Below, piece after piece: positions 30,736-59,919 of a DNA stretch of 60,000 nt; position 1 is the stretch's first letter; every line of letters starts with the position of its first letter. A program made the position numbers and the translations under genes. Origin of the DNA: Amphiscolops sp. MND2022 (lineage: Eukaryota); assembly GCA_964187785.1 (NCBI GenBank), contig OZ076409.1:42658001-42718000 (forward strand). The letters are read 5' to 3'. Below the pieces are notes generated by a model. The model did not search any database. It was not told the DNA's origin and was given only the letters and a program-made list of their open reading frames with translations.

Positions 30736-30737
30736 TT

Positions 30738-33020: not shown

Positions 33021-36000
33021 TCAGAATATTAAATTGCGAAGTCTTTTTCTTGCTATCTGTCTTCAAGGACATGTATTTTTACTTGGGACTATTCTGACTT
33101 CTTTTGAAATAAATACCCGTCGACAAAGCAACTTAGTGGCGTACAATATAAAGGCCACAAATGGCAACTGCAAATAATGATTTAGCTTTATCCTGTTCTG
33201 GGATTTGTCCCTCAATTACGGCTGGGATCCGTTCTTCAGCTCCTAATGACTCCATCTTTCTTGTGAAGTATGCCCCACAACTTTCAGTGTTGCTCGTTGA
33301 TGACAGCTCAACTAAGGACCTCGTGTCTACTGGGCGTCCAGCGACCTCTGGTTCGGGGATTGACTCAATTTGTTGGGACTCATCTCTATTACCTCAGTTG
33401 ATTTTGGATTCGGTTGGCCACTCATTTCTTTGCCTAAACGGAAAGAAATAAATTCATGCGATCTACTTCCGCTATAAAAATCCATCTTATCGCGTTTGAA
33501 AGCCTTTCGAAAGCAAATTCATTATCTGTTCATACCTATGGGTGAATATTTTACGATGGAGGAAGTGAAAACTTAGTCAATGGGAAGCCCTGATCAAGCT
33601 CAAAATTGACAAAATATTTTAAAGAACCAACCTGATGTTTGTCTAAATTGGCAAGCAGAATTTGTCTGTCGAACTTCAACTGTTGGACTGGAAGGCTGAC
33701 GTCCATGATTTGGAAAGATTACTATTATGTTGGAATTGGTGATCGGGAAACAGCTAAGGGACAAATACTGACTCAGGTCAAGCAGGGTCTGATAGACTTG
33801 AAGTCCAAGAAATGCAAAACTGCGTGAGGATGCTGCTGATGAGACAAAACTGTCACAAAATTAACCTGTTGTGGTCTAATCGGCTAAACTGACCCTGGAG
33901 AATGATAATCAAAGATTCGAATACAAAATGTAACAAGGAAGATAAAGAATTTGAGTGCTATACTGTTGACTGTGTTAGTTATCAAATTGGTTTAAGGTGC
34001 TCTACGACAATTCGACTACAAGTCCCATTTTCATATACTTACTTGTTACTACCAAATTCGACTATTGAGGAGGTTAATTATCTAGTTATTGCATTCTTTA
34101 ATATGACTTTCATTAAAGGACGTCGTGGCTACATGCAAACTATTTCATTACTACCGAAGTTACTATTTATTTCAACTAAACTTTCAGCATGATTTTCGGT
34201 GTTTCGGAACCTGCCAGTGATGTACACTGGACCACTATTCCTTCTTACCATTTTCTTATTAAAATTACCATCATTACAATTTCTATATTTCATCGATCTT
34301 CGCCATTTTGATATTCCATTCAGAAAATTCATTTATTTAATGGCAGAATTTGATTGGCTAGTTAGTCGAAGCTAGATGCGTAGACCGCTGGTCTTTGAAG
34401 TACACAGTGTATTTATTCATCATAACATCTTGATTTCGTTCATCTCAATTTCATCCGACCGATCAGTCGACTCACTTAAATTTCGACATTTGCAAAGAAA
34501 TTCTTTCTGAATATACATAAAGTTGAAAAGTCTCTACAATTCTCTGATGACTGTGGTCCTATCTGGCTGTATAGACAACGGATCTTTTGCTAGCACACTA
34601 TGCAGCCAAGGAAGCTTCTTTGATTCCGAGCTAAATAGTGAACGAATCGACCGGGCAGGAGAATCCTACACAACAAGACAACGCAGAATAGATGCTTCTC
34701 AGGCTGGGTTGCGAGCGGGCTCAATTTTCCTCGTACCCAGGGGAGTGTCGCAGGCTGCCGTCTGCGATGAGAATTTGTACCAAGTGATGGCAAACGATAG
34801 AGGAGTTTTGCCTCTATAGACCACGTGGACCGCCAGTCCACGTTTGAACGACTTTTATAAATATCTAGTCTTTATAAACTGTCTATTTATACAATTTTAA
34901 AATTTTACGGACCGTCGGTCCATTCGCCTAATTGCGACTTATAGTTAAAATTGTTTTCCTGTGCTTAACATGCAAAATATTGTACAATTATAGTTCATTC
35001 ATTAATTTATTATGATTGGTATCTATTTCACAGGTAAACCAGAAAGCTAGAAGCTTGAAATATCAATTTGCAGTATAAAAGTAACTGGAACGTTGAAAGG
35101 AAACGCGTTCCAATGGACGCCTCAACTAGTCAAATCGACGTGTGGTCCTTTTACTTTATTATCCAATCAGCGTTTATTATTCATTCACTTGTGCTATTAT
35201 TGTGCTAATTATTTGTTGCCTTCAAATAAAAGGCCGGATACGGCAGACAGCCGGCTACGGCCTTAATCGTCATTCAAAAGTTGGTGCTGTTCACTTGTAT
35301 TTTTGAATGCTAGTATTATGCAGTATTTCATTCATTTACTATTGCTGTAATTCAATGACCGAGTACGGCCATGCGCCGTAGACAGCTTGGCAGTAGAGGG
35401 CGCTTGGACGACAAGGCCTTATTATTACAAAACTTTGATGCTACTGTTCCAGCGCTGTACTATTATTGCTCAAATGTCTTTTGGCTTGGCGCGGTGGACC
35501 ACAGGTCCAAATTTAGACTGACCAATCAGAAGCGCTTACATATTTATATTATTAGTGCTGTGATTAAATACGTGTACGTGCTCAATTAAATTAAATGTAC
35601 GAGTACGGTCACGCGCTGTAGTCAGCCTGTCGTAGCGGACCACAGGGCCTTATTTCAAATCATCCCATCATATGCCGCCATTCAGTGCTCTTATTAATTG
35701 TACGCAGTAAACAGAGTTAAAAACCACGCTGGCCATGCAGTATTTAGAGACGTACTAATACGACAGACAGCCATTGTGGCTTTCCTTTATTTAAAGCAAT
35801 TCTATTAACTTGACAATCTTGCGCTAATATGAAGCAGTTGAAATGTATTTTAATCAATACTTATCGATGCTTTGACACCAGTCCTTGGTGTCCCCTGACC
35901 AAGGACAGTCCACGAATCCTTGATGTTAGTAAAATAGTCCCCACCCGATATTTTATCCACTAACGAAGATTATTATGTAACCATGTCACATGTATTATGA

Positions 36001-36235
36001 GTGTTGCAAAATGTTGTGGACATGAAGGCCATATAGTTTGTTGCTTCTATACATGTAAAATGTTCTCGTTACAGCATATAAAATGATTGCAATGTGTTTC
36101 GGACATCATTCAAGAGACCTATTGTCCTAATAACCAAAGTTGGACGGCACAGTAATCTATCAAGCGATGAAGACAACCACATGGACCGTTTCAGTGTGGG
36201 GTCAGCAGGGACGTTTCTCCTTATGCCAGGGGGAG

Positions 36236-37799
36236 TGTCGCAGGCTGCCACCTGTGATCTTATTTTATTTTATGTCCCTTTGTGTCGTCTTGGACAGCCA
36301 GTCCGGTTTAATTTAGACCAATCATATTGCAGTATTAGTATGAGTGCTCTGATTTAGTGCTTTTAATTAATGGACGTGATGGCCGTTCACCGATTGTCAA
36401 CTAATAAACCAGTACGTTTGCGGCAGTCGGACATTGAGTCCTAATTTGCATTTTAAGTGCTGTTAACTTTCATTTAAAGGCCATTCACGGCTGTCCACCT
36501 AAATAAATCTCTCACTTATGGCTAGTGGACAGCTAGTCCGGTTAAATATTAACCAATCAGAGCGCAGTATTACTTTCATTTGTTGCTGTACTGAGTTATT
36601 TAATCAAAGGATTAGACGGCCATATGTCGCTTGTCAATAAAGCGCTTGTCCGTTCATGTCTATGGGACGCTGAGTCCGTAACTAAATTAAAAGCGCTAGC
36701 TGGTGAATATTATCAATTGCATAATTGTTGGTGCTTTAATTTCCCATATGATGCATTATTAGTCCTCAAAGGACTTATGAACTACGACAGACAACGTGCT
36801 ATCAGTGCATCTTCATATAATTCATGCAATCCTAACGAGTGTTGAAATACATGTATCCTGTTTAGTTTTATGCATGTAAATCGTTTATTGTCCGTATGGA
36901 CTCACGGGCTTCCCGCCATGTTAACTGTCGGAAAGGCCCTTTGATGTATATAGCGTCATGATGATGCTTGTTACTATTTATAGCATTGGCTATATTTAGA
37001 AAGCCCTTAAGGCTATTTTCAGTTCATGACTGTTAAAATATTGAGTGTCATGCAGTGTTGCATATAAATAACCGGGACTCGTAGTCCCGGGGAACACAAT
37101 TGTTCTGACGCTGTTATAAACTGTTTGATAAATCCGTTCAAATAAACTGTGTTTGCAAGCTTAAGAAAATTAATTTAAATTCTTACCTCTTGCAATAATC
37201 TCTTATGCCTTCCACTAGAAAACAAAGAGCGAAAGGAAGGAGCTGAAGGCAAGTGGACTTGATGTCTGGTGTAGAGAATCTAGACGTAATGTTGGGTTCA
37301 TACTCAAGAAATCAATTAGAAGTTAATTCCGACGATAGAAATGATGAAGTGGACCTTGGGTCTGACAGGACTAGACAGGACGTAGTCCAAAATAGCGAGG
37401 ATTTCAGATCGCTTTCAAATTCAAATAGTAGGGAAAACAGTGAATCTACTATTGAGACCGTGAGGCTAGTAAATTCAGAAGTTTCCAGGAAAATGGAGGA
37501 ATTGAAAAGGGACTTAAATTCCCAAATAGCTGAGACTATAAATTCACTAATCAATGAGAGAAACCTTCCAAATATCCAAAATACCATGACTAATCAAAAT
37601 TCTGTGTTTCGGGAAGAAATGGACCAGAGGTCCGGTAGACTAAACAGGACCGCCGGAGAGAAAAATGCTAGAAAAGCATTGAAAATGAACTCAAAGCCTA
37701 TTTTGGCTAATAGTAGTCGACGAGACTACTTTAGTGGAAACTCTGATGTTTCCCAATCAAGTGACGAAGATCATGACATATTGACCAAGAGTCACGACA
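36236..37799 (+). repeat. 3' LTR (1564 bp), carrying a second copy of the gag N-terminal coding region
   Basis: Direct repeat of 28052-29615; ORF 37253-37933 matches Gag up to LTKSHD and then runs into flanking DNA. Confidence 0.95.
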
Positions 37800-38007: not shown

Positions 38008-41000
38008 TGTTGTATTCTAGACTTGTAAGGTAAAACAGTTTTCTAAAATAATTTCTCTATATATCAAACGAATAGCATCGTTATAAAACATAAAGTGATA
38101 TAATAAAGTTTTTTATCAAATGTCTATTGTTTGTAAATATGGCAGGTAATTGTCTATGACCGAAACTCTGTAGAGGTTAAATATCTAGTCCGGTATTTGA
38201 CAGGTGAACCGTATAGCATTTCCTCTTCTCCCTCGGGCTTCTTCAAAATTGGGATGAGGGCCCGGGTGCTGTCATGTCGCCCGGGAGGAAATCCTGTGAA
38301 TTATGTACCAGTTCCGACAGCGGTTGTGGGGTGCCTTTTGTGCGGTTCCAAAATGGTCCTGTAACAACAATGTTTTAGTCACATGTAAAAGATTCCTTTG
38401 TGTGGTACACTAACGTATCTATTCGGTTTATTTATGTTTCGGTTTGACCGTCTAATATTAGATTTTGAATTCTCAACATGAAGTATCCTTCCGTCAGTAT
38501 GCAATTGCAGGGAATCATTCTCGGGATCAGTCCGGATTGGCTCGTAACTGCCGTCTCTCTCCGACGTATCATACACTCTTCCGGTTCACTCCGGTATCTC
38601 TTCTTCTTCCTCGTCATCATCATCATCGTCTTCCGACTTTGTTTTGATGCGTTTTTGGTTTGGGACGATTCGGAGCTTCCCGTTCAGAATGTCACGCAGT
38701 ATCTTGTCCCAGTTCCCGTATTTGCCGTCTAGTCCTTTCAGGCAATGACGGCTCTTTGAGGTTATCTCCGCTGATACCGCTGGTACCGTCTCTCTTCGGT
38801 GTCTTTTCTCACTTTGAAACAGGTCCCGAAATTAGTTTTCAGTGTATAACTTTTCCCGTATCTGTTTTACGGTATTTTCGGCCCCGCTTATAGCAGTTTG
38901 TGTTTTTGATTGAAGTCTCCCTTCTAGGGATTTTCAGTTGTGTCTCTTTTAAACAAAGTTGAAAGAATACCTAACCGGGATTTTCTTCTTCGGTGATTTG
39001 GTCTTTTGTTTTACCGGCCATTTGCTAAACCGATCTATTGCTATTAGTATTTGTGATTCTTCGTTTCAATTTTTGTTGAATAATTTTCCGGTAAAATCTA
39101 TTTGTAATTCTTGGTTGGGTTAGTTTTCCTAATTTCTCGTGTTGTGTTGATTTTTGGAACTTGGTAATTAGGGTTCTTACCTGTGGCGAGGCATCCCGTG
39201 CAGTCTTTAACTTTCTGCTCTATATCTTTCCGCATCCCCGGCCACCTGAAAAGTTTTGCGTCGAATAGCATTTTTGTTGTGCCGGAATGACCAAAATGTA
39301 ATATCTTGATCAGTCTTCTTTCCAAATCGATGGGTACGGCATTTTGATACATAAACTAGACCCCACTGGATTGATAGATTGTCGAAACCGGTCTGTATCC
39401 TTCCGGTGCCGTGTCTCTTTTTTCTCTCCGCATGCTTGGGCTGTTGTCATCTCCGAATCGATCACCGTTTTTGAAACAAGAGTCTTTAGGTCCATCTTGT
39501 TCTCCGTTAGTTTGCCCACCATATGATTGATTTGTATGTAGTGAGCCATTTGTCCATCTGTGTGGTATTTGCTCAAATCGACGATCGGTAGGTTATCGCT
39601 CCGCATAATTACACTGTCTTCTTCGGTGTCCACCGTATTTTGGTGAGCTTGTACTTCTCCATTTTCCGGAGCTTCTGTTTCTTCTTCTTCTTTGGTGATT
39701 TCTAGCGGTTGGTAGCCCCACCTATCGGGTTCGCTCGGTGTGTAAGTTTTTCATCGATTTCTGCAATCTCTTCCCGTCTACTCTTGTTTGGCCTTGACGG
39801 TGCAAATATAATTCTTTGTGATTGTGGATCATATCTTCTCCGCATAGTTCCCAATCTAACAAGATTTTCTCTCCTTTCCACAAGTCTTCTGGTCTCCGGG
39901 CTTTTATTTCTTCTCCGAATAAGTTCCATTATCTCGCGGGAGGCTCCCCAGTGAAGTAAATTTTCTCGGTTCAATCCGTATTCAGTATAGCGATTTTTGA
40001 ATTTAAACTGCTTTTCACGGTGTTAATATATTCGTTGACGTGGTTTTTGTTCTCGAATGTTCTATTTGTTTGTGATTCTTTTGCTCATTTTCATTTCGGT
40101 TTTCCTTTCGAACGACTCTTCGGTATCTTCTGTTCTTGAATTTGATTGGTTGTCGAACAGCGAACTATATTTTGCGTTCAGTGCGGCGTAATCAGTAAGG
40201 ACGTTGATCACATAATCTTCGTCGTATTTGTTTTCTATCGCGGCTCCCCCTGCCGGATTTCTGCTGATAAAATTGGTAAATTTTAGGTTTCTGCCTGTGA
40301 TATGCTGAACTGCGATGTCAAAGTGTGCCAATTTATCCAGCCACCGGGTTAACCTTGCGCTATTTTGTTGATTGCTTTGGTTGCGTTTTATTATTGATTC
40401 TAATGCTTGGTGGATGGTGTACGAGTGTATTTTCTTTCCGTAAAGATAAAATCGGAATTTTTCTAAACCCCAAACTACTGCTATCAGTTCCAATTCACCG
40501 AGAGAATAATTCTTTTCGGTATCATTCAGACATCTGCTACCGAATGCAATCGGTTTTATGTTTCGGATGCCTTGTTTTTGCCAAAGGAAAATCACGAGTC
40601 CGGTTTTACTTGCGTCCGTTTTAACAAAAATTTTGGCTGAATTTTGCCCCGCTGATTGCGAATACGCATTGTTGGCTTGTTTTTTTTCGATAATTTCATT
40701 TGTCCGTATGCGTAATCTAAATCAATTTTTGACATGAATAATTGGGCTGTTCGGTCGCGGGTAATTTCTACCGATATCTGATTCAATAATTTCTCAATGT
40801 TCGGCATGTGTGGTCTTCGCTTTATACAACTATCGTTTAAATTTCGGGAATCGAGTGCTATTTTCACCAAATTATCGTTTTTCACCGTTATAGCTATCGG
40901 TGACACAAAGCAGTCCTCATCCATCGTTATTTACCATTTCAAGGTGTCCAGCTTTTATCAGTTTCTCCAGTTTTGTACCCTACATCGTCCTGTAGGTGCA

Positions 41001-42665
41001 GTGGGATGGGTCTGGCCTTTTGCTTCACCGGAAATTGTCCCTGTTTTAGCTGTATATTTATTTGGGAGTCTTTTATTGTTCGGTTGTTCTCAAACAAGTC
41101 CGGAAATTTGTTGAGTATTCTCTCTTCTTCTAATTGATTAATCTCGGCAAAATGAATTCTTCCGATTGTTAATTTGAATCTTTTCATCCAGTCTATTCCC
41201 AAGAGTGGTGTTATATCCGTTCTTTCGGTAATCAGGATCTCCATCTTCTCTTTGTTATTTCCGTATTCTATGTTCGCCGGTATCTTTCCCCGGATTGCCA
41301 CTTCGTTGTTATTAACGTCTTGGTATCGGTTCGTATTTTCTGTAATTCGGTTCGTTTCGGTATCTGTTCATCGAAGGGCATTATTGTTACCGGTGATCCG
41401 GTATCAATTATGAATTCTTTTTGTATCACATTTATTTTTACCTTCGCTGTGTAATGTTTCTGTTTTGTTTTCGATATTCTTTATTTCTTCTGTATGGTCT
41501 ATACTTTCATCGGATTCGCTGAGAGATTCATTTGGTTCTTCCTCTGTTTCTTCGGTAAGTTTTTTCACTGTTCGGTTGTTGTTTTGTCTTTGCCGGCATG
41601 CCCTTGCGTAGTGTCCCTTTTTTCCGCAATTGTTGCAATTCGACTCCGATTCCGGACACTTATGTAGTGGGTTGTTGCAAAATCTGAATGGTCGGGTTCC
41701 CATAAAGTTTGTTTTTGGTCTAGAACCGAATGTTTCCATTCTGTGTATCGGTTCATCTATCATCAATTGTTTTTTTTCCTTGTGATCAAAGCTTCGGGTC
41801 TTGTGTTCTTTCTGTTCTTCTTCTCATATGTGTTTTCTTTTCTCTGTTCAATTGCTTTTTTTGTTTTTTCATTTCGAGGGTTTTTTCCTCCATCATCTTG
41901 TCCCGTAACTTTTTATCGATGATCGCCGTCATATATTTTGAAATCAATAACTCTTCGGCTGATATGATGTTAAAGTTGCATTCTTTCTCAATTTCGAATA
42001 TTCTTCTCCAGAACTCTTCCGGTGAACCATTTTCCGATTGTTTTGCCCAAAAAACATCGCCTCGATTGTCGTATGTGTTACGCTTCGGTAGGTAGTGTTC
42101 GGTATATAACCTATTTAGGTCTTTCATTTTTATACTGTCCGGTTCCGTTCTTTATTCGGCTCGGGTTATTTGGTATAGGGCTTCTGGCCCCACTCCCCAA
42201 ATAAAATCTTCTTGGAAGGCTGTTTCTTTTCCGGTCCATGTGTTATCTGTAATATCTTCTCCTTTCAATAATGGTGTAATGTCGATTTTATGTTCCCGTT
42301 TCGTAAACTGCCGGAATTTTTCTAGCCACTGCCTCGGTGTGAATATTGGATTTCCGTCTGATGCTTTTGCTTCTAAGTTCGGTACGATGTTTTTCTATGT
42401 CATGGTTTCAGTTTAGGAAATTTCAATTTGGTTAAAATCTCGCTTACTGTGCCATGTTGTATTCTAGACTTGTAAGGTAAAACAGTTTTCTAAAATAACT
42501 TCTTTCTATAACAAACGTATAGCATCGTAACAAAACATAAAGTGATATATTGAAGTTTCATATCAAATATCTTTTGTTTGTAAATATGGCAGGTAATTGT
42601 CTTTGACCGAAACTCGGTAGAAGTTAAATATCTAGTCCGGTATTAGACAGTTGAACCGTATAACA
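38008..42665 (-). mobile_element. Decayed Ty3/gypsy LTR retrotransposon, short-LTR lineage
   Basis: 211-bp LTRs at 38008-38218 and 42455-42665, visibly diverged; TSD ATGTC; minus-strand PBS TGGCACAGTAAG and PPT GGGAGAAGAGGAAA. Confidence 0.92.
38379..42403 (-). pseudogene. Fragmented gag-pol
   Basis: Gag MT*KNIVPNLEAKASDG; CCHC CNNCGKKGHYARAC; protease IDTGSP; RT KIALDSRNLN and IDLDYAYGQM; RNase H ELELIAVVWGLEKFRFYLYG; integrase HFGHSG..CTGC; many frameshifts and deletions. Confidence 0.85.
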
Positions 42666-44930: not shown

Positions 44931-47900
44931 GAGTACCGAAATGAATGTTCACTCAACTTCGAAAACAAATTCAGCTTTATGATGTCTTGAAATTTCGAAG
45001 TAGAAGAATCCGAAGATGACCGGTTAGTCATTATAAACATGCCTTTGCCCATTCATTTGACCGTATCTACATCTACATTGATCTTATTCCGGAAAAAAAT
45101 AGCTTACAATCAAGATTTCTCAAGAAAATCGCATTGATTTCCGAATTCAAGTCGATTTCACGCCCTTGTTTCACTGAAAAAAAAAGAAGACCAAAGATGA
45201 AGATTTTTCCAAAGAAGCCTTTCAGGCTCATTTTATTGAATTTCTGCGAAAAGGTTTTGCACTGAATTTATTCAAAATTTTTACTCCACTTTATTCATTG
45301 ACAAAAAGAATGGCTGACTTTCCCCATGTTTTTGTTATGAAAGTGTGCCATTTTATGCCATGTGAAGGATATGACGTAATTTACCAAGAGTGACGCATTC
45401 ATATTCATTGGCTTCCATTGAAAGGACGACAGGAGCAAAGATTAATAGATCTGTAAGGAGAAAGAACTAGAGGCGAGAATTAGCTTTTCCGCGCATAGGC
45501 ACCCAAGAAGGATTAAATGTTGAATGCAAAATTAAAGACAGTATGCAGAGAATTATTGAATTACATGCTCAAAAGTGGGCGCCATTATTCCTCCCATTTG
45601 CGGCATTGATTGCGCAATGTGTTCACTGCCCCCGCAGAGACTAGGGACGGGTTACAGACTTCAACTCCTCCGGCCGCTAACTGGTACTTTACGCCGAGTA
45701 GTTTTGAGACTTTTTTTCCCCTACGGACTTATATCATCTTTTTCTGAAAATACGTGATGAAAGCTATAACTATGAACACTTATGTCGATAGCTTATTTCG
45801 GAATTTCTTAGATTTTAATAATAGTCAATTTTATCATTCCAGACGCAGTTTTCCAATTTTTCGTTTTTTAAACAACTTTGGTCGTCGTGGAATTGTGGAA
45901 AAGAGGCCCAGTAATATCTATAGGGGGAGGAGTAAAATGACGCTGGTATGTGCAAGGGATTGAGATTAGAATGCTACAGCTAAGATAGAAGCTGTTTTGT
46001 TTGAATTGTCAGAATATCTTGCTGTTTATAAAGTCATAAATGGTGATGAATTGTTTAACGAGCGGGCAGGGGTCATTCGATTGCATCCATAATCCACTCA
46101 CAACCAAGATTGATTGTTTTCTAAACAACCACGTCAAACACATCTTCATAAATTAATGAAAAGAACCATGCAAAATTTTTACAAGTGAAGAGCGTGAAAA
46201 TGATCACAAACAATACCATAGCTTTTCATGTGACGTCGCAGTTCTGGTCGTCAAAAACGGAAGGATCGAAATTTGAAGGTCGAGTCTGTAGATTGCTTGA
46301 CATGGGAAGATTAATTATTCTGTGCGTGGTTTAATAATAATCTGGATTAATCCACAGAGGAAGAGAAAATTGAGAGTGAAAATCCTTCAAAGGTTGCATA
46401 TTTTTGAGGATCTGGTTAAAATGTTTCCCAATTTTCTTGAAATGACACCAAGGTTTTTGATTTCCGAATTGTTTCAATGCTTCGAAAAATATATGGGCAT
46501 TATTTATTATTTTCTTTTCCGAATACCTTCTGCGTACTCCCAAAAAATCGCAACTTTTTAGATTTGTATCAGAAGCACAGCTACTTGATTAGAAGTCAGA
46601 TGGTGATCAATATGCAGCAAATTATGCAGTACTACGTAGTATTTCACCAGTTCGAATAACTCTTCTACTTTGCTTGCTTACTTTTAGCTTCATTTTTGTT
46701 GCTTGAAAAGTACCCACTAACCAAAATCTGGTTCCTTAGAGGGGGCGGTGCTTTCGAGACGGCTGGCCATCCATTCATAGCCTAAAGGCGAGACAGGAAA
46801 GAAAACTTGCGGATAAATTTGAATGAAAGATAATGAACCTTGAAAGTTGAACGCAACATCGAAAGTGCTTCATTAAAATTTCTTTTCAGCAACGGCATAA
46901 TCGCAGACGTGTCCCTAAAAGCAGAAGACTTCGCAGTCTCTCTTCTGTGGGTTGATTAAAATAAATGAGGCGAATGTGCTGCGAGCGAGTTGCACACATC
47001 AGCCAGTGGATTGTTCTCTTCTTGTGTGTGCCTTTTTCACACTGTCTTCTAATTAGGTTAATTACGTCCAGAACAACGGATCCCACAAAGCTATGATTGA
47101 GCCACTGAAGGCATCAGGGTACAGGGGCTATTCTTTCACCCCACCCCTACCTTATTCTAATTTTGATGGAAAATTACAGAAAAATGACCGAAAAAGAACG
47201 TTTTTTGTTACAAGTTAGATATTCTCAAAACCTTTATGATATGCTGAATACACGAGAAAAAAGCGTGGAGTCAAAACATTAACAAAAATATTGGACGATA
47301 ACATCACTGAAAATGTTCAATTCATATAATACGCCAGCTATGCAGTCGGCATTTTTCCACCATGGATAACTTCAGTTTTGAGCAAGCTCTGATGTGTTTA
47401 GGACCTGCAGAAAGATAATCAAACAATATTGAATGTTATATTATTAGGCACTATTTGCAATTTTGAGTGATTCTGTTTTGGGAATTTTTCAACTATTTGA
47501 AGTGATGAAAGTTGACAATGAATAACGACTGGATAATGACTTATCAAGGGCTAAGCACTCGAAGACAAGTTTCACATCTTCCATTACTAATTGCCCGCAC
47601 GGCATTTAAAAATTTGTTCAATTCGAACAGCACTATAAGTGTTTCTTGCATATTGGAAAAATAGCCAAAACGAAAAAGAGGACTCGACTGCTATAATAAC
47701 AACTGTTTCCACGTCTTTCAAAATTTTGGGTTGATATCTAGTCCAAACTTTGACAGACTCAGTGTCCCTGTTTCCTAAATATAACGAACTCATGATATTT
47801 TGTATCTCTGAGATTACTCTATCAGTAATGACTGAATTGATAACTCTATTGTAGGAAACTGGCCTTCATGGTTGAAGTCCCGAATTTCAATTTCATGGTC

Positions 47901-49810
47901 CTAGAACGAGAGTCGGACTCAGGGTCATTATGACTGATTGAACCATTGATTGTGTTAGATAATTACTTTTCTATGGGGTTTGCATTTTCACTCCCAAGTA
48001 AAACGTCCATGTTTTCAAAATCGGACATCAAGTCCAACTCTCTTGACCTTCTATCTTTCGCCTTTTGTTTTTTTGTAGACGGCATTGAAATTATGCGAGA
48101 GAGTAATATTGAATTATTTCTCGAAATTTATGATTGTACCATTTTCAACATTAACAATTCGTTATGAAAGTAGCAGTGTGTCACAGCCCCTCGACAAGCC
48201 ATATTTATACTCCTAGGAAGATGACATTCCAAATTGGGAGAGCCATGTTACTGAAAATAGCGGAATTCTATTTAAAAAATGACACACTCCTATAAATAGC
48301 AATATGACATCATCAACATTATCATCATGAAAGTGCGAGCTGTTAATTTTGTTTACGAGGCCTTGAGGTCCACATAAACATGGCATATATACATGCATCA
48401 GCATATGGGTATGAATCCCTATTAATATGATATCACATGTATGGTGTATGTGCGCAACATGACAAAGGCCATGGAGGCCGAAATACATATTGTTACATGG
48501 GAGCTAATGTAACAGATGAATTTCATCATTAGGGCTGGTTGTTTTGTATTTAGGGTGATACAAGGGCATTACCACGTTGTACAGCATTAAGTCCTTTTCA
48601 ATCAATCAAGGGGACTGGTGGTCTACCTGTCATCAATTGTACAGCACACTAGTATGCGTGGCCGTGCGAAGCCTTTAATTAATAACAGCGAGCAAATATT
48701 ACACTTGCTTGGATGTAGTCCTCTGATTGGCCACGAAATTAATCGGACAGCTAGGCCAAGACGACAGGCGAGAAAACACTTGAACAGGTTTCCTTTGCTT
48801 GTACGCCTTGGCGTCCAATTCCTAATATAATGCACGTATTTTACATGTTAAAATGTACAAATCGTAAAAGCAACAGTATTAACTAATGGTTTGCAAGTCC
48901 TTTTATGGCCAAAATGGCCAACTAAGTGTTAAAGTCCATATAAGGGACAAAATGATATGGCCTTGAATTATTAAAATAAAGATGAAAATAATAAAAGAAT
49001 TGTATGAAATAACAAAGATTTCGAGATAAACTAAAGTAATCTAGATATTGCTGGCAGACACTTTCTATATGTCGACGTAACTTCTAAGTAACTAAAAGTG
49101 ACACCAAATTGTATAGCCACGAACTCCAATTTCGACATTTTGTCTAATCGTTGATTCACCTTCCAATTCTTCCAACTTGATTCGTCTACAGTTATCCTCT
49201 TTTTTGCAGTATTTAGTCACCATTTTTCAAAGTCAACCGTTAGTCTTTGAACTGTATTATTTGTAACCTCCATTTATATCACTTCTTTGGGACAATCTGT
49301 CCTGCTTCCCACCTTCGGGAGATGCTTCTGATTATCCCCAGAATATCGACGCTCTAGTCCCAATTAGCAGCTTGCTTCTACTCGTCTGCACTTTTGCTGT
49401 CCCGGAAAAGAACAATACAGCCTCCCAAATTCGGACACTGAGTCAACCTTCCTCAAGATCACGCAGACGGCAATCATTCTTCGGACATTGCGACAGCTGG
49501 TCTGTTCTATTACCAACTGCGCTCCCCAATCACCTACATCAAATTCTAGAAACCTCCGAGTTGCTACTATTGCCCCACAGTCGATTCGACGTAGATCAGT
49601 ACACTTTAAAAATTTACTTAGGCTTGAAGGTTTTGATTCGAACTACTCCGGGGCCTAATCAGGGCTCTCATTTCATGCACGTATTTCCTGACAAAATAAC
49701 ACAAAAATACTCAAGTGGTCAGCTTTGTCCACTTTCTGAAGACTTTTGAATGCGGCACGTTGGTTTACACAGGAAGTTCACCGCTAATTATAATCTCTCT
49801 GTGTTTAGAC

Positions 49811-52800
49811 ATGACGTCTAACGAAAACCTTGAACTCGTGCAAGTTGAACCAACGAAGACGCAGGCTTCCATTCAATAAGTTGCTACAGAGAGTACTCAA
49901 GCCGAGAAAACTCTTGCAGAGTCAATTACACCCGCATCTGCCTCCACCGGGTCAGCCACAGAAAGTTTGCCAGCTTACGCTGAACGAACCGTTGAAGCAA
50001 ATTTTGCTCGAGACGGCTCCAACATTACATCTCATCTCCGCTTCCCAATCAAACTGCGGTACCGCCAGGGACTATTCTGAAAGCTTCAGAGTCAAAAGAG
50101 GTTGGCATCAACACAAAAAGAGAATACCTACCCACCCAGGGTGAGCCAGAGAGTGGTCACCCAATCTTGTATAGACGATGATGTGATGAACCCAGCGTTA
50201 TCAGCTTTTCAGCCGCCAGGGGCCCAGTTGATCCTTCATCCTATTTTACTGATACAAGCAAAGTTGAAAAGTTAATGGATAGCTCTGGAGTCGACGGAAC
50301 TGTTAGCCCGCAGGGTAAGGGCACTTCCACTTTCATAAGGGGGCCCACCCGAGGAGAAGATACCCCAAGCGGTAATGACTCCCCCAATGCACAACCAGGG
50401 CCCAGTCAGGGACACACTCTGGTGCCGCGACAGCTCTCAGCTAGTAGGCACACATTGCTTCGGAAGTATTTAACTGAAAAAGATATGATTAATTTACCCC
50501 GAGGTCGTCCCACCATGGCTCTCACTAAGGGACAGATGCACACTAAGCTAAAAACCATTTCTGATGAGAACATCTTGTCCACTTTCCATCTGATGAAGTC
50601 CCTACTCCTGCAGGTCACATTAGGAAAAATTCTAAGTAAAGAACAGTGTAGACACCTGGGACGAGCCACATCTACTGCCAACCAATACTCGAACAGTTCA
50701 GGAGATGAGACTACAGATGTGGACCCACCAGTGATGGGTATACTAGTGGAGCCAACAACATGGACGATGAGCCGGACAGTCTGTCTTTTTGTTTAGGGAT
50801 GGGAGAAACAAGCCAACAATGAACCGCCGCAACTGCAACTTAGCAATGCACTGACCCAAATGACTTCGGAGCATTATGTGATGGAGCATTAAGCCCTGGC
50901 AGCGAATATAGTTTGGGTGATTATGGCCCCTTTCCACTCTCATTCCGAACCAGGCCAGTCGGCTACCCAAAAAGTCTCCCCCGTAAGCGCAGAAGACTAG
51001 TGCGACGACCTGGGGAGGTGATGAAGGAGGCTTATTTTAACGGCATCCGCTGGACAAAGACCTTTGTGACTGGCCCACTTGACCCTGCGCACTATCAATT
51101 TAAGTTTTAATGCAAGATCTGCGAAACCAATGTCTCTTTCTAATCTAAGGGAGCCAGAGAAATGATACATCATTTCCTGGCCGCGTCTCGCTTAAGGAGA
51201 GATCAGTTCTGGAGATACAACCACCTCAGTCAACCGGACAAGATCACTGGTGTCGTGACACACCAAGTGCGAGGGAAGAATGGAGTCCTGTTAACTCCGC
51301 TAGAGCTCGAAAAGGAAAATCTTCTATTTGAGCCTGCTCACTTAGTGGATATTGGAGGGAAATTCCCTTTTTACGAGGACTACCTCGCGCAACTAGAAGG
51401 ACGACAGTCCACCAGAGACGCGCGGGACAATAATCAGATTCCTTTGATCGGAAACAAAGTCCCACTCAGTGGCGATATTGGACTTCTTCACACGCTCTGG
51501 ACTCGAATTGGCATACATATGAACCACCGGGAAGCTTTCTCTCCTTTTGATTGGGAGTCTGCGAGGCTGACTGTGTGTCATTTTCCATGGACTAATTTGT
51601 AGGATATTACTTTCTGGAGAAACTATTTTCCTTTTTGTGTTTAGGCAAATTTCCACATTTTTTCATTTGTGGAGTAGAAGACCTTTCCAGGCAAATTGTA
51701 TCCAGCGACATGTATTCGCTAGAGTTTGAGACAGCTGGCCGTTCTCGATTGATGTCTGTCCGTTTCTGGAAGGATGATACGCTAGTGCGGGTCCTGATGG
51801 ACCGCTGCCCCCTGTCCATCGAGATCCCTGGAAGTTACTATGCTGGAGCTTCATGATTGCTCTCAGTCACTTCAGCCAAGCCCAAACTAGTCAGCGTGTC
51901 CCGGTGTCCAACCTCAGTAGTACAGGCTTTCGATGACACTGGGCAGCTTCTTTACGGAGTGCAGTATCCCTTTCGGTTTGGCGACTTCTCTCTTTCAACT
52001 CTCATGCATCAATCCGAGGCAAACGTCTTTGGTACCAATGAATTCTTCTCCCAATTCAAATTCCTGATTGTGACCCTCATCGGAATTCTCATCCAATCTT
52101 TGACTATACAGGCGCCTGAGCTGACTAAGGTTAACATCCCTTTTTGTCTTTCTCAGACTTGGACAACTCTTTGAACGTCATTGAGACTTGTATTTCCAGG
52201 CAGTCGAGACTTGTAATTTTGAAATACAAAACATCCCAGCCATTTGTTCCGAGTTGATAATCCACTGGCAGACAGTGTTGGATTACCTTACCAGGATTGC
52301 GCCCTCGAATAACAGGCAAGGACTGGAGGGTACGGTGAGCATTTCAATTTTCGTCCTCTCAGCGCGTCAGCGATAGATCCAGTAGGGTTCATAAATTATC
52401 AGTACTTGGTTCCTATGATAAATATTGTCTTGTCTTAATTCAGCCGCAGAGTCTTGAGTGGGCAATCATCGCCGATGACTTATTCCCCGTCACGTTGGAA
52501 CTTTTCGGTTGCCTAGTCCGGGACTGTAAGTAATCCCAGTTAGTCCTGATCCAAGCATGTTTTATATAATGTAGTCTTCGAACATACATGTACAGCATAG
52601 ATCTAACATTGACGCGATCTTTTGATCATCTCCAAAATGCTATTTGTTGGATTCTAACCAGTTGCCATCTGCTTTGTTTAGACAACAAGTGCTTCGATCG
52701 AAGTCTGTTGAGACGTAGAGATTCTGGTTTTTCACCTTCGGCGAACTGTGTGGGTGGGTGGCTTCATCCGCAGATTGTGCAGCTGAGGTATATTAACATA

Positions 52801-53735
52801 CTCTGCTGACACTGACAGTCCGGACCTTACAGTTTTCTCTGATGAATACCGAAGTTGAATAGCCGTGACTTCTCCTTCGCTTCAAATTGAAGTTCAACAT
52901 TAACGAAACCGCTCGGGCAAAAACTTGGAAGGAGAACAGCTGGAAAAATATCCTGAACTCTATTATCGAAGGGCTTACGGAGACTGTAAAAGACAATTTT
53001 GCCATCCAAGCTCGGAGTTACGTCGTGTACATCTTGGACTCCTTGTTGAGAGTAATCGGACTGACAGCTGGCGTAGTTCGAGGAATGGCAAGTTTGATCT
53101 TACCGTCCTATTAACGCAGCCCATGGAACAAATCCCTGTTTTGCTTTAGAGCATTATTCCATAGCTTTCAGCTGCGCAGATGGGTCCTGGAGTCCAACGA
53201 GTCCGAGTATCGAGCGGAATAAATCGAGTTCAGTGACCACTTTCGAAATTCTTGAGGGAATTTTAGAACCTCAGAGTTGGTCACTGACGTAGTCGATTTA
53301 CTGATTCCAATGCCAGCCCTACAAAGTAGACCTCGGCTTCTCCATTTGTTTAGACTCAATTGCCTTTGCCTAACTGAGTTTAGTCACAACCTGGCAGCTA
53401 TCCAATTATAAGGCACTGATTCCACTGATTCAAATTGCCGATTATCAAGTGTTCTTCGTTCTTTTACCTGCTCAGTCTTACCTAGCGACAGTACCTCAAT
53501 CCGTGATTTCTTGTGCATCGGAAACTGCTTTGGCCGAGTTTCATGAACTCGAATCTCGCTTTGATTCAAGGGACGTCCCTGGAGTCCCTTGGAACCATGT
53601 TGACTCAATTGGACAAAGAAAAATTTGAAAAATTCTACAAGGTATGTTGACCGGCTACAAGTCTCAAGGCAGTGATGCTTGCACGGCCAAAGTCGTTCGT
53701 AGTCGTTCCTCCTCCGTTGTTAATGAAAATCAGCG
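49811..53735 (+). pseudogene. Decayed antisense gene: low-complexity N-terminus, C2H2/BED-like zinc finger, hAT-transposase-like remainder; candidate introns
   Basis: Chain of plus-strand ORF fragments from ATG 49811; KF*CKICETNVSF*SKGAREMIHH at 51102-51173; YSLEFETAGRSRLMSVRFW; GT..AG segments 51573-51644 and 52335-52443. Confidence 0.55.
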
Positions 53736-56700
53736 ACAGCTTTCCGGTCCCCTGGAAAAACTGTCAAACTCGCGGCCACCAGCCATTCTCGACATTATTT
53801 CATTTTCAGTGACGTCATTTTCACTCCTTTCGCTGCTGCTTTCATCTTCGTGAGCGCTGCTGCGTTCATCTTCAGTGACGTAATCGTCTACTTCGCCGCT
53901 CCTGTCGTCATCCGGTAGATGTGTGGCTGTATCTGGCCAATAATTTTTTCTCGTCTCAATTAGCTCGTAATCAAACTCCACTTCCCATTATAGATTATAA
54001 AAGTCGTCTTGCGGTATTACTATCTCGTCGTCAGGCTGTAATGTTTCACCGGAAAAATTGTCCTAAAGGGGCGTGTTTGTTACAGTTTTTTTATAGTCCA
54101 ATTCGGTGTAATGTCGTTTGGCAAAACGTTTTGAATGACAAAAGGACCTATCAACCGGTTGCCTTTAAATGGAGTTCTGGATGCTTGACTGTCAGCTTTA
54201 GGCTGTAGGACAAAACAATAATCCTTTTCTCTAAAAGGAGCAGTTTTGACATTTCGTTCATAATAGTCCTTGTACTTCAAGTACGACTGCATAACCTTTT
54301 TTTATGTTTCTTCTTCTTTGTTTGATCCATAAGGATTGGCGTCCTCTGCTGTACTGCTTCCGCAAATTCTGTGATTGGCAAAAAATTTTTATTAGGGTTA
54401 TTCCCTAATTTATGGTCCACGACATTGTAGGAGATGCGTTTATGAATTACTTTGCTCGGCTCACATCCAGTAGTAGTTCTTTTACAAACTTCCTGTAACA
54501 ATTTAGATGTGCCAGGGTGTTTGTTTGCCGTGCCATGTAGGGCGTGTAACAATTCTTTTAGCAAGTGCTTTGGCAGTAGTATTTGTTGATATTTGCTTTG
54601 ACCAGTTTCATTATAGTATTGCTGTGTCATTACTTCGTCCTTGAGTACTATGCGGTTCAGATTATTAAAATAATTTTTGTACTGAATTTCCTGTTGGAGA
54701 ACTTCCTCCGAATGCTCTTCTTTCTGGATGTTTGCTTCAAGTTGGAGCGAAATTGGATCTCCAGCCTGCTCCAACAGTATCTGATTAGTTCGTCGCAGTT
54801 TCTGGGTGAAACTAGTGCTTTCATCCACGTGGATTTCAGATATTGCATCTATTTGTATTACGGTGTCATCGACCTTATGTTCCTTTTTGGACAATTTCTT
54901 GCGCTCCCAAATCTGTTCCTCTGTTTCGTCTCCTTCTTCAGTGAAGAATACTTGTTCTTCCTCTGACACGCCGGTCGATTGGACATTCACCTCAATGGGT
55001 CTGGTTTCAACATCTTTACGTATTTTTAGGATCAGTTTTTCGTTGGGATTCATTTCCATACGGGACGGATAGTCCGCCGCTGTGTTGATTTTGCCTGGAA
55101 TGTGAGCTATGATAAAATGATAAAAAAATATGAGTTACGTAGTGATTGCATTCCAGAGTGGCGATGGTATGATTTTTGTCTGGAAAAACCTCGTGACCAG
55201 TTTATTGTCTGTAAGAATATTATTTGGTTTTGGCATTCCTCAGAAAATATGTCCAAACATTTTGAAAGCGTATTATATGGCTAAGAATTCCTTTGCATAT
55301 ATTGACATTTTCTGCTGCAAAGTAGTGAAAGTTTTTGATCCGTAGGCTACAGGCGCATAGGACTTTTTGACATAAGTGAACTTTTGATTTGGATCGTCTT
55401 CAGTCAGAATGGCAAAACCGGCTGCCGTGAAACTTGCATCTGACATTAAGACCAGTTGTTCATTTGGCAATGGTGCTTTAGGGCCAGCTGGCTACACCTG
55501 TCAATGTCCTGGTTGATTTCTTTGAATTCTTGTACCAGCTCCGTGGTCACTAAGACTTTCTCATCGTTTTTAAGGAGTTGGAGGAATGGTAGCAATTTTT
55601 ATGATAATCATGGAATTTCATTTCTCTAGTAATTGAGGAAACCAAGATAACGCTACAGGGCTTTCTTAGCTTTCGGGAATTATGTTTCTTCCAAAAATTT
55701 TTTTTCTTTCTTCCGGGGAGTGGGGAGGGGCTTAACACCTTCTTGGGTTATAGTCCTTCCCAAGAAATCAATTTCACTTGCGCGGAAGGAGCACTTGTGC
55801 ATCGTTAGTTTTATCCCAGCTTCTCTGATGCATTCAAAAGTTGCCCTCAAAATTGTCGGCGTCGTTGGCTGCAAGGCCTATGTCGTCGATATATTGGATG
55901 CATTGATCTGCTTTAATTAACTCGATCGAAGTATACCCTCATAAAGCTAGAGAAGGCCCATAGGGCTCTGCTGAGTCCCTGAGCCAGTTGTCTATAGGCA
56001 AAAAACCTGCTTGCAAACTTAAATGCTAGCATTTCTATGGATCTTTGGTCCGCCATTTGAAAAGTTTCTTTCCAGACAAATGTAGCGCGGCATCCGTGAG
56101 TGTACTGACTGGTGATTATTATTAAAATAATCAACTGAGATAAGAATTTTAATTTTTCTCAGGTCGCTAGTAGTCTGAGTTTCCCATTAGGTTTTTTCTG
56201 GGGGGCTGGCGTATTTAGAAAAAGGCAGGGTTGTACTGATGTCACTTTCATGGATTGACGGCAGCTCGACCAGTATGTCTTCTTCTAAGTTAATTGGGGT
56301 GGGCAAACATTGACTATAAGCTGTTGAATCATCCTTTGGGGTCAGTTTGACAGTGAATTCTTCTTTAATGCCAATGTTAAATTTATGACGAGCGAACAAG
56401 TCATGAAATTCTATCAAAAGTGATTCAATTCTTTTGATCTCATGCTGTTATACCATCGAGTCCTTCCGGTCAAAGTTGCTGAAGAATTTTCGACGAGAAT
56501 CTTCGTCGTCATTCGGTTTCAGTTTCTCCGCTTCTTGCAGGTTGCCCAATTCTCTGAGTATTCGTTTTTGTGTAGGTGTATGGGACTCCTCGTCTCCTGG
56601 ATTTTCAGGTGTCGGGAACCAATATTGTTCGTGTTCGTCATTGTTTCTGTTCGCTTGAAGAAGACTGCTGAGGTAGTAGACGGCGTGCTCTCCCTTTTCG

Positions 56701-57875
56701 TTTAGTACGTGCTAGGTAGACACTTGGTCAATTAGTCTGACGTGTTTATTTTGTTCAGGGGTCATCACTGAGAAATTTGCAATATGCAATCCTATTTAGG
56801 TTTGTAAAGTTGGTCAGTGAAATTGTTGACGCGTATCCCCATGGTCCCTTTATTCAGTGTGATTGTTGCTGCGCAAAATTTTACGTCGCTTTCTTCGTGC
56901 AAAAGGTCCTCAGATTGTAATATTCCTTTGACTGCGTTCTATGCATAAGTTTGGGATTGTATTGTAAGGACCGTGTGGTAATTTGGTGGAATGGTCACGT
57001 CCTTGGGACTAAGTAGTAGTCCCATGACGTTTGAGTCTTTGTAGTCAGCCGTTTTCAGTTGCATAGAGAAATAGAGAAAATTGAGGTTACCTTGACGCAA
57101 GTCCAGGACTGTGTGGTTTATTCGGAGGAACATTAATCCGACTCTGGTACTGGATAACTTCTCCAATAATATAAAAAATTCATGAAACTCAATGTCCCCT
57201 ACTTCAAATTTCAATTCAACTGTACTCTTTGGGGTTTCTAAATCTCCATTTGCGACCAGTCTATGGAATGATGGGACAGGTCAGTCTTTGATTATGGGTT
57301 GAGGCGCTAGTAGGCGTATTTTCTTGAGGTCTGCTTCGGGTATTGCACTGGAGTGGGCCGCAGTATCTATCAGGCCGTCTAGTATTAGTTCTCCAAAGTC
57401 CATTGGGAAGTCTAGCATCCGTCGTTTGAACTTAGGGCCAAGGTTTGTTGAAAGGGGAATATATGCTGGTTCTCCCTCCTTGGTGACCAGAACATGCAAG
57501 AAAACCTTTTCGTCTAATCGGCTGTTTGTAACGTTGTGTAATTCTTGCCTTTGAAATTCTTCTATTTCCTCCGGGTGATTTGCTTCTGAATTCGGCTGCC
57601 AAATTCTATGAGGGCCCTGAATAATTTGTTGTTTTCAATCTCAAGGTCGTCCGCGTCGTCTGTTGGAGGATAGTCGTTATGTCTAAAGTGTAAACCTTCC
57701 TTGTCAATGTGTACTTTTTTATATATCTTGATGTAGGCTTTTTCCATCTGTTGCTACCATACAACGGACGGGGTGCCATTGGTGTCTTTGATAAATTGGG
57801 GAAGTTTGGTTGTGGGAGGATCTGATATGACATGCTGTCGGACCGACATGTAGTCTTGTATTTGGAGTCATGGCA
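53730..57875 (-). pseudogene. pol: Decayed pol (protease, dUTPase-like segment, RT, RNase H, partial integrase)
   Basis: LIDTAA; VTIPPNYHTVL; RT QGLS and YIDD (about 55880-55895), IDFLG; RNase H MSDASF and KEFLAI; integrase LHGTANKHPG; acidic tail. Confidence 0.88.
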
Positions 57876-57878
57876 AAG

Positions 57879-59542
57879 TTAGTTTTTTGAATCAGGCTGC
57901 TTTAAGTTTGGTTGGCTTGAGGTAGACGTTTCAGGATTATTTTCTTTCTTGGCTGTTCCTTCATCACCTGAGGCATCATTTGCTTTGTCGTCAGGTCGGG
58001 TTCTCTCAGGACGTAGATGAGCACCAGCGCCTTGCCAACATCTTTCTGGTGGGTGATTCTTTCGCCCACGGGTTTCACATGGTGGATATGTTTGTATCAG
58101 TGGTTTTTTGCCATTTTCTCTTCCATTTCTTGCTTTAAAGTAACAGCATTGAGCATCTTCATTGGTGTCATTGCCATTGGACAGCAAGTTGCCGGTATTT
58201 GTGGACACTGAGGCCGTTGTGGCAATTGGTAGGTCGTCTGATTCCCCCAATGCGTTGAGTTCTAGCTCTCTTTCAAGATGAGCTACGATCTTTTCATATG
58301 TCCCATTCTGCAGACGGGCAATGTTGACGGATCGTTTCAATTTTGGAGGCAGTTTAGCACACAACACGCTGTCAATCATTCTTTTCGCGTTCTCACTAAA
58401 GGCTTTTCAGCTCTTTGGTTTTACTCTTCCAAGAAGTCCAGCAGTTTCGCGGTATTAGAATAGGAACTGAGCCTATGCCATTTATGTTTTGCAATAGCTT
58501 GTGACTCCGGTTTTACATACTTTCTCCGGAAGATGACCAGTACGTCCTCCAAAGTTTGGCGATATTTTGAGTTTATGTTCTTGAATGTCTGCAAGGATCC
58601 TTTTTGTAACAATGAGTGGAAATGATTAATTTTCATTTGTTCTTCAATGCTGGTTGCATTATAATCGTTTGGAACAAGTCCTCAAAGAGTTCAAAATTTT
58701 CGCTCTTTTCATCGAACGTCATCGGAGTGACTGTAATTGGTCGGATCGTCATTGATTGTGGTTTATTCTACATGTTGACCAGTAAATCGGCCAGTCTGTT
58801 GATAGGGTCCTGGGGTGTTTCAGGCACCTCGGGTTTTGGGGCTGGCAGAGTCGTGTCCAGAGAGACATTATAGATCAATTCTTGTCGCTCCAGGTTCGGG
58901 GTTGAGTGGATTCGTCTTTTCAGGAATTCAAGAATTTGCCGTTGGGTGTCGGTAGCTCCTGTCACCATGTAAGAACTAAAGTCTTCCCTGTATCTTAGAT
59001 CACAGGCAGACCTACAGTCCTTCTTTGCAAATTTAGTTTACAACCCATTCGCACCAGTATTGTTTTCCTGAATATTTGATGACAAACGAGATTCAGTGTC
59101 CCTGTTTCTTGAAAATATCCTGAACATTAACTCATGATAATTTGTATCTCTGGGATTACTCTTTCAGAAATCGCTGAGATGATAACTCTCTTAAAATGTG
59201 AGTGCATCAATAACATCATGGCGTCCATATCCTGAGAGAGTCTAATATTAATCTCATTAGAGAATGTTTGCGTTGAGTCCAAGATTGCAGCTTGTCTAGG
59301 AAATTGACCTTCATGGTTGAAGTCGCGATTTTCATTTTCATCAGAAGGAATAGTCCTCTAGTACGAGAGTCGGACTCGTGGTCATTATACCTGATTGAAC
59401 CCTTGATTGTGCTAGATAATTCCTATTCTATGGGGTTTGCATTTTCACTCCCAAGAAAAACGTTCATGTTTTCAAAATTGGACATCACGATCATCTCTCT
59501 TGATCTTCTAGCTTTCGCCTTTTGTCTTCTTGTAGACGGCAT
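57879..59542 (-). pseudogene. gag: Decayed gag starting inside the 5' LTR
   Basis: ATG at 59542 MPSTRRQKAKARRSRE; KINHFHSLL, VFRRKYVKPESQA and AKLPPKLKRSVN shared with the gag at 29021; ends SKN*. Confidence 0.85.
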
Positions 59543-59919
59543 CAAAATTATGCGAGAAAGTACTATTGAATTATTTTTCTATATTGATGATTGTAACATT
59601 TTCAATATTAACAATTCGTTATCAAAGAATCATTGTGTCAGAGACCCCCTGAGAAGCCATAGTTATACACCTAGGAGGATGACATTCCGAATTGGAAGAG
59701 TCATGTTACTAAAAATAACAGAATTCTATCTGAAAATAGACACACCTCTATAAGTATATGACATCTTCAACTTTATCATCATCAAATTGCGAGCGGTAAA
59801 AATTGTTTACGTGGCCTTGAGGTCCACTTCAACATGACATATATACATGCATATGTGAATGAATCCTGAATAATATGATACTACATGTAAGGTGTATGTG
59901 CGCAACATGACAAAACGCC

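Follow-up and report, generated by a model that had tools for sequence, protein, structure and literature searches.

An antisense gene with four introns and probable hAT transposase ancestry in Ty3/gypsy retrotransposons of Amphiscolops

The right end of a 60,000-nucleotide stretch of the Amphiscolops sp. MND2022 genome (contig OZ076409.1; the whole stretch is called the window hereafter) is occupied by a minus-strand Ty3/gypsy long terminal repeat (LTR) retrotransposon, an old and broken copy of a ~16-kb type. Coding-like sequence runs on the opposite strand between its pol gene and its 3' LTR. What is this antisense gene, where does it come from and what could it do for the element? An earlier note had read it as a probably spliced gene resembling a zinc-finger protein and a hAT transposase, captured as an accessory factor for targeting or anti-silencing. 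The underlying layout was readily recovered, with gag, pol and LTR remnants all located. As set out below, the gene belongs to a whole family of elements, probably descends from a hAT transposase and is predicted to encode a DNA-binding regulator.

Relatives were searched for in the organism's own genome (1.07 Gb). A DNA search with the finger region gave 40 scored matches among 215 candidates, with 67-73% DNA identity, the window itself excluded. Protein searches yielded 130 scored among 7,694 candidates for the last exon, and 114 and 127 matches in the other two cases. The sample consisted of 51 loci, namely 17-19 kb around 50 matches (20 from the DNA search and 10 from each of three protein searches) plus the window; it was picked by similarity to the gene, high-scoring and diverse matches being preferred. 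An antisense pol of at least 300 amino acids (aa) directly follows the gene in 49/51 loci, and these span 30-100% protein identity. The two others sit in LTR remnants and represent internally deleted or interrupted elements. An LTR pair was present in 44/51 loci, TG..CA ends with a 5-bp target-site duplication (TSD) in 28/51, and all 51/51 lie in an element context, as found in a sample drawn from high-scoring matches. Intact elements are ~16 kb long, many with LTRs 98-100% identical, and read LTR-gag-pol-[antisense gene]-ORF4-LTR on the genomic strand (ORF, open reading frame). A primer-binding site and a purine tract are common to family members, and a Pfam search of one intact relative gave the pol order protease-reverse transcriptase (RT)-RNase H-integrase. 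The earlier note had asked whether the gene keeps one place between pol and the polypurine tract; its place between pol and the 3' LTR is indeed family-wide, with the amendment that ORF4 normally lies between the gene and the 3' LTR. Terminal inverted repeats above background were not found at the gene borders of 18 elements (longest inverted match 11-14 nt, compared with shuffled maxima of 13-16). Because no such repeats flank the gene, it is not a nested insertion, the finding that the earlier note had named as refuting its reading. Searching with a last-exon profile yielded 589 relatives among representatives at 50% identity. Of the best 150 last-exon relatives, 64 were less than 50% identical to any sampled locus, and the family is therefore wider than the sample. 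It probably occurs in other genomes too. In one element (L043:1897-6436) the 5' half of the antisense gene is duplicated in tandem (2.27 kb, 99%).

Two observations concern its neighbours. The pol of one relative (L066:283-3012, minus strand) contains a dUTPase-like domain between protease and RT (PF00692, 22.8 bits, cut-off 22). ORF4 (L065:1837-2808, minus strand, and homologues) encodes ~290 aa, is sense to gag-pol and stands head-to-head with the antisense gene. It has an acidic N-terminus, a conserved CxxCG motif and the peptide GGVSQAxACDG, gave no Pfam match, has a ratio of nonsynonymous to synonymous substitution rates (dN/dS) of 0.06-0.41 and is exchanged together with the LTR.

Alignment of 25 loci revealed four GT-AG introns at fixed positions, in phases 0, 0, 0 and 1. 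With fixed exon lengths, every present intron reads GT..AG in 29/51 loci; the remaining ones are decayed, truncated or shifted by indels. In 8/51 loci one or two introns are missing exactly at the predicted junction, namely intron 2 (L171), intron 3 (L181, L183, L185, L187, L195) and intron 4 (L167, L171, L175). The precise absence of three introns in some subfamilies supports the splice model. Exon 4 is likewise continuous with exon 5 in the database proteins P0013 and P0078. Introns 1 and 3 had been proposed earlier as GT-AG segments and are homologous splice sites across subfamilies; introns 2 and 4 had been overlooked. Introns antisense to the genomic RNA survive reverse transcription. Their precise loss would need a spliced antisense RNA that is copied back, and transcription of the gene is therefore indirectly indicated. 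Since both deep clades share the introns, loss rather than gain appears to be the simpler reading.

Exons are 58-79% identical compared with 33-55% for introns (six pairs). The total exon length is 1,226-1,280 codons in six intact copies, and exon 1 has 585-680 open codons in intact copies. The dN/dS ratio, proposed earlier as a check among copies, was 0.03-0.26 in the pairs with measurable dS (14 pairs compared, many of them saturated). Judged from such sequence comparisons, the gene is kept under protein-level purifying selection. In most relatives the start lies ~17 codons upstream of the exon 1 start of the window. These first 17 codons (L065:3867-3920; window 49760-49810) encode the conserved peptide MD(S/F)Y.GS.P..FISF.L, and their DNA also resembles a branch point with a TTTAG acceptor; copies of the L111/L199 type, like the one in the window, do not start here but at the ATG that follows. 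The stretch may serve as an alternative splice site or encode a short interaction motif.

Nearly identical gag-pol backbones carry different versions of the gene, which is exchanged as one block. The elements L161 and L165 share 88-99% identity across LTR, ORF4, pol and gag, compared with 45-68% across the antisense gene, and the pair L169/L177 shows the same pattern. The converse was seen in E57/L115 (gene 86-96%, pol 70-84%), and L115 and L117 differ mainly in LTR and ORF4. The exchanged blocks are bounded by breakpoints in the non-coding region upstream of the gene and where pol ends. Trees of RT and of the accessory protein agree in deep clades and disagree within them (25 loci of 36). Approximately unbiased (AU) tests with 13 loci rejected each gene's clade on the other's alignment (p ~1e-4 and below), the groups having been chosen after the trees had been seen. 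Homology-dependent template switching accounts for the swapping of blocks with no need for special selection, but not for the many old cassette lineages that persist on shared backbones. Derivatives lacking the gene were also found (L201-L212 and one in the window). The window itself contains a related, recently inserted non-autonomous element (28052-37799, plus strand; LTRs 99.9% identical, TSD GTATA) without most of pol, in which the antisense gene is reduced to a 52-codon N-terminal stub and the promoter block is kept. At least 15 copies share its junction at 99% identity or more, and several other junction types occur. As gene-less derivatives multiplied, the gene is not needed in cis.

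From its N-terminus onward, the protein consists of a disordered stretch, a basic patch, a C2H2 finger, a core resembling RNase H and a helical domain. Its N-terminal ~400 residues are rich in S/T/P/E/D/G (44-54%) and are closed by the basic patch. The finger reads C-x2-C-x16-H-x5-H in 36/36 copies where the regular expression found CxxC; the earlier note had correctly seen a C2H2-type finger and misjudged its spacing (C-x2-C-x15-HH). This region is the most conserved part of the protein (mean identity 0.64 vs 0.42-0.46). In Pfam the finger gave only a weak match to the generic C2H2 family PF25420, with E=0.002-0.01 and below the cut-off, and zf-BED was not matched. Catalytic positions were inferred by motif register against local hATs and Hermes, whose catalytic residues are D180/D248/E572. 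Asp occurs at b1 or b4 in 0/31 exon-2 copies: the first Asp position (b1) holds E/A/V and the second (b4) is Ser/Thr in 31/31. The third position has no conserved acidic residue (~90 aligned rows), and the CxxH and RW motifs are absent. Asp is missing from the inferred first catalytic position, as the earlier note had suspected, and the degeneration extends to all inferred catalytic motifs. A protein without catalysis, DNA-binding and nuclear, is predicted.

The likely origin of this protein was approached by structure prediction. The natural frame that runs through intron 1 (L181) was modelled with AlphaFold; in this N-terminal half the core, with a predicted local distance difference test score (pLDDT) of 62-76, has RNase H topology. 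Foldseek ranked Hermes 8edg first (E=4.8e-3, prob 0.82), with five Hermes chains in the top 17. In VIA, Hermes reached Z 6.7-7.1 with an alignment to Hermes 133-266 and beyond; the Hermes rows also cover the preceding helix and reach into the insertion. The model of the C-terminal half (last exon) has a pLDDT of 88.4 and was aligned by VIA to Hermes 367-608 at Z 5.1, within the noise range, over 169 residues, the longest alignment of 50 rows. Both predicted halves thus align collinearly to Hermes, with weak scores. In the ESM Atlas, 23/30 matches belong to one set; its best cluster has a score of 0.92 with 144 shared features, and Dimer_Tnp_hAT occurs in 60% of the cluster's members. GTF2IRD2-like clusters were also indicated. 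The link to PF05699 (hAT) comes from language-model features only. No usable match was obtained in the ESM Atlas with exon 2, nothing relevant by VIA re-examination of the Foldseek rows of the C-terminal half, and no hAT similarity by a PDB sequence search. Full-length or fused database homologues of exon 5 were not found at E<=0.01, which is weak evidence, and a search with PF14291 gave no match anywhere, controls included. The comparison with Hermes suggested in the earlier note thus bore out a finger and a collinear RNase H-like fold, with weak scores and without support from sequence profiles. Based on these models, the accessory protein probably descends from a hAT transposase. Several free, intronless hAT frames of 500-700 aa with DDE motifs that look intact also exist in the genome (L142-L155, L213); these frames have no detectable sequence similarity to the accessory protein.

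What could such a protein do? The palindrome CTTCCGGAAG lies 20-30 nt before the ATG in 40/47 loci and is enriched ~20-fold in the intergenic region. YY1/CCAAT promoter elements are not conserved upstream of the antisense gene. Between paired LTRs, CpG transitions were counted at 41/3,751 sites vs 225/~58,000 elsewhere, a 2.8x rate; the host therefore probably methylates these elements, which would give a reason for counter-silencing. Gene-body methylation specific to the antisense gene was ruled out, CpG depletion relative to synonymous shuffles being alike in gene and pol.

The reading that we favour, at about an even chance, is a hAT-derived, trans-acting nuclear DNA-binding regulator that is predicted to keep the element's own promoters active. 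The gene would be transcribed from its own promoter near the 3' end of the element, opposite to the genomic RNA. Its introns would then go unrecognised when the genomic RNA is spliced and would persist through reverse transcription; now and then, recombination with cDNA of the spliced antisense mRNA would produce the precise intron absences. As suggested by structure prediction, the hAT ancestor would have retained its zinc finger and lost its active site. The protein would enter the nucleus via the basic patch and its finger would bind element DNA, the palindrome before its own ATG being one candidate site. The disordered N-terminus and the helical domain could recruit host transcription or chromatin factors, and cognate copies would thereby be activated or de-silenced. 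Template switching at the conserved flanks would exchange whole cassettes between co-packaged RNAs. A fuller scenario, which we offer as tentative and more doubtful, is that of a domesticated transposase, introns included, serving as an exchangeable trans-acting anti-silencing or activator module with dozens of diverged cassette alleles, intron loss via the element's own reverse transcriptase and gene-less cheaters.

Several results weigh against the favoured regulator and its hAT origin. The Hermes Z scores are below 8, level with Argonaute PIWI domains and retroviral integrases, the Foldseek E value is above 1e-3, and the mean pLDDT of the N-terminal half is only 54.5. Foldseek of the C-terminal half found nothing among PDB and viral structures. 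A Pfam hAT family was matched in 0/106 members, hhalign profile comparison with hATs gave probabilities of 0.1-0.8%, and a local hmmsearch for hATs was no better than reversed controls. At the first catalytic position 26/31 copies have Glu, with an invariant Glu two residues earlier, in a mapping made by motif register. The palindrome CTTCCGGAAG also resembles host ETS/STAT sites. No cassette-specific, repeated VANC-like target motifs were detected in the non-coding cassette DNA of 17 elements (no 8-mer in more than 3-4 copies), and the recognition helix of the finger is similar across cassettes, an ill fit with strong divergence in specificity. Finally, gene-less derivatives are equally compatible with a gene that is dispensable and with one that acts in trans.

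Among the alternatives, self-restraint survives best and still seems unlikely to us. Here the antisense transcript and/or protein would repress the element as a copy-number control, or would compete with host hAT-derived factors. ZBED6, which is reportedly a repressor, counts in its favour, as does the recent multiplication of gene-less derivatives. Owing to the antisense orientation, double-stranded RNA would also form with the genomic RNA; such a role is discussed in the available part of PMC7264820. However, an RNA effect needs no purifying selection at the protein level over ~1,230 codons, and retention of the gene in most full-length, recent insertions is harder to explain for a pure repressor.

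We likewise find it improbable that the protein acts in integration targeting, tethering the integrase complex to chosen host DNA or chromatin. A DNA-binding finger and a patch resembling a nuclear localization signal (NLS) would suit this role, and a separate tether is conceivable given that Pfam detected no chromodomain in the integrase. Yet the 28 TSD-flanked insertion sites have no common target sequence beyond a weak T bias, which gives no support to the targeting function suggested in the earlier note. Only 3/28 sites share a repeat and 2/28 lie in family-related sequence, in a small sample with mixed cassette types. Cassettes were, moreover, swapped onto near-identical integrases without co-variation.

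In VIA, the core matched Argonaute PIWI domains best (Z 7.3-7.6), which raises a third possibility: an inactive PIWI/Maelstrom-type domain that acts as a decoy, binding or shielding element RNA from small-RNA silencing. Extra nuclease-fold ORF3s in rotifer LTR elements, and inactive nuclease derivatives in the biogenesis of PIWI-interacting RNA (piRNA), are noted in the available part of PMC5408684. We give the decoy a slim chance, as the PIWI matches are limited to the generic core and level with Hermes, Hermes alone also aligns, in order, with the preceding helix and the C-terminal half, and the BED-like finger and NLS indicate DNA in the nucleus. A nuclease or recombinase still active through a shifted acidic site is quite improbable: Glu at b1+3 (31/31) and at b1+5 (26/31) and a near-invariant Arg on b2 could form such a site, but b4 is always Ser/Thr, the third position has no conserved acid, and CxxH and RW are absent. 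A simple nested hAT insertion or passenger pseudogene without function for the element, to which the broken window copy, the abundance of free hAT transposases (150 scored PF05699 matches) and the multiplying gene-less derivatives might point, is largely refuted by constant position and orientation, borders without inverted repeats above shuffled background, dN/dS far below 1 and conserved splice sites.

The copy in the window (Table 1) is a pseudogene: exons 1, 2 and 5 are disrupted by stops and frameshifts. The extent given in the earlier note, 49811..53735, is largely right, although the match to relatives runs to ~53774. The peptides CKICETNVSF, YSLEFETAGRSRLMSVRFW and VVDLLIPMPALQSRPRLLHLFRL reported there are present, and exactly two TAA codons, at 51108 and 51141, interrupt the frame 50913-51572. 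By tblastn, natural exon 1 is matched across three frames with 6 stops; exon 2 is 1 nt shorter than in relatives and has one stop. The LTR remnants 47852-48466 and 59297-59914 are 83.6% identical, 47755-47850 pairs with 59089-59192, and 48721-48861 pairs with the LTR of relatives. Upstream of the gene, blocks matching relatives lie at 48911/48972-49224 and 49628-49755; intact relatives have ORF4 in the region 48911-49810, where ORF4 coverage in the window is 0.

Table 1. Parts of the Ty3/gypsy element and its antisense gene, in window coordinates
Feature	Position	Strand	Description
3' LTR remnant	47755..48861	-	decayed, partly deleted; ends approximate; no TSD found
Non-coding region upstream of antisense gene	48911..49810	+	two conserved blocks; likely promoter
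Exon 1 (broken)	49811..51572	+	disordered N-terminus, basic NLS-like patch, C2H2 finger, helical region
Zinc finger, BED-like C-x2-C-x16-H-x5-H	51111..51194	+	fourth ligand missing in window copy
Intron 1	51573..51644	+	GT-AG, phase 0
Exon 2	51645..52129	+	RNase H-like core: helix, b1-b2-b3, helix, b4, helix; without catalytic Asp residues
Intron 2	52130..52199	+	GT-AG, phase 0
Exon 3	52200..52334	+	45 codons, open
Intron 3	52335..52443	+	GT-AG, phase 0
Exon 4	52444..52525	+	82 nt, open
Intron 4	52526..52681	+	GT-AG, phase 1
Exon 5 (broken)	52682..53774	+	all-helical domain; aligns to Hermes 367-608
pol, decayed	53760..57705	-	tblastn; protease, dUTPase-like, RT, RNase H, integrase in Ty3/gypsy order
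gag, decayed	57882..59620	-	start falls inside 5' LTR
Primer-binding site, first letters TGGTGACAGGAG	58950..58967	-	common to family
5' LTR remnant	58968..59914	-	similarity to 3' remnant

Elsewhere in the window, a 550-codon open frame (25181-26830, plus strand) with an N-terminal hydrophobic stretch and no Pfam match looks like a host gene or retrocopy, perhaps sulfotransferase-like. Another LTR element family is represented at 38008-42665 (minus strand; 211-nt repeats, 91% alike) and by a short derivative at 9687-10748 (minus strand; 222-nt repeats, 99% alike); a profile search of the window found no trace of the antisense gene in either. Segmental tandem duplications with a spacing of 1,144 and 1,649 bp, 97-100% identical, lie at 18788-22688.

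How does the gene compare with known systems? The Retand/Tat group of plant Ty3/gypsy elements has ORFs (gene23 of Grande, RIRE2, TRP28/PF04195 of Retand) that are likewise antisense, lie between pol and the 3' LTR and are family-wide. According to the available parts of PMC7264820 and PMC11963269, they have their own promoter, are nuclear and carry a domain labelled transposase, with function unknown. In contrast, the gene described here has four conserved introns and a hAT-like architecture of nearly full length and is exchanged between backbones as a block, and Pfam searches did not match PF04195 (Transposase_28). The word intron is absent from the available text of PMC11963269. With Hermes and domesticated hATs (ZBED, DREF, GTF2IRD2/FAM200-like) the gene shares an N-terminal CCHH BED-like finger, as defined in the accessible part of PMC10368747, and with Hermes also an RNase H-like core followed by a large helical region, in a collinear structural match with weak scores. 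It differs from hATs in its degenerate catalytic motifs, the lack of terminal inverted repeats and of detected sequence similarity, and its carrier, a retrotransposon instead of a DNA transposon or host. The accessory gene belongs neither to the active hATs nor to the TRP28 ORFs. VANC of VANDAL and TnpA of Spm are accessory, trans-acting, DNA-binding proteins, a role that is predicted here (bioRxiv 10.64898/2026.08.24.746577 and PMC5735166, in their available parts). The former source derives TnpA from a transposase and, as PMC5735166 does for VANC, provides a precedent for dead transposases as sequence-specific activators; such regulators are reportedly also the subject of PMC3606216 and PMC2780926. 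Both are proteins of DNA transposons in plants, with tandem repeats as targets and an activity that has been tested, whereas the present gene is known from sequence and no such repeats were found. Bdelloid rotifer LTR elements have ORF3s (DEDDy exonuclease, GDSL esterase) that are likewise interchangeable accessory ORFs across element types (PMC5408684, available part). These are other protein families, and none of the words intron, hAT and transposase appears in that text. In the literature covered, which did not extend to most subscription journals and Repbase-type sources, no paper was found to describe an LTR retrotransposon with an antisense gene that contains introns and derives from a hAT.

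Origin and function of the antisense extra ORFs of LTR retrotransposons have so far been unknown, as stated in the available part of PMC7264820. The present gene has a traceable likely ancestor, a hAT transposase, defined introns with natural precise losses, and many young intact copies. Together with the natural cassette swaps on near-identical backbones and the deletion derivatives, these features make the role of such accessory genes testable within one genome. The probable hAT ancestry suggests that class I transposons have received a gene from class II. If the tentative scenario were true, an LTR retrotransposon outside plants would possess a counter-defence system like that of VANC.

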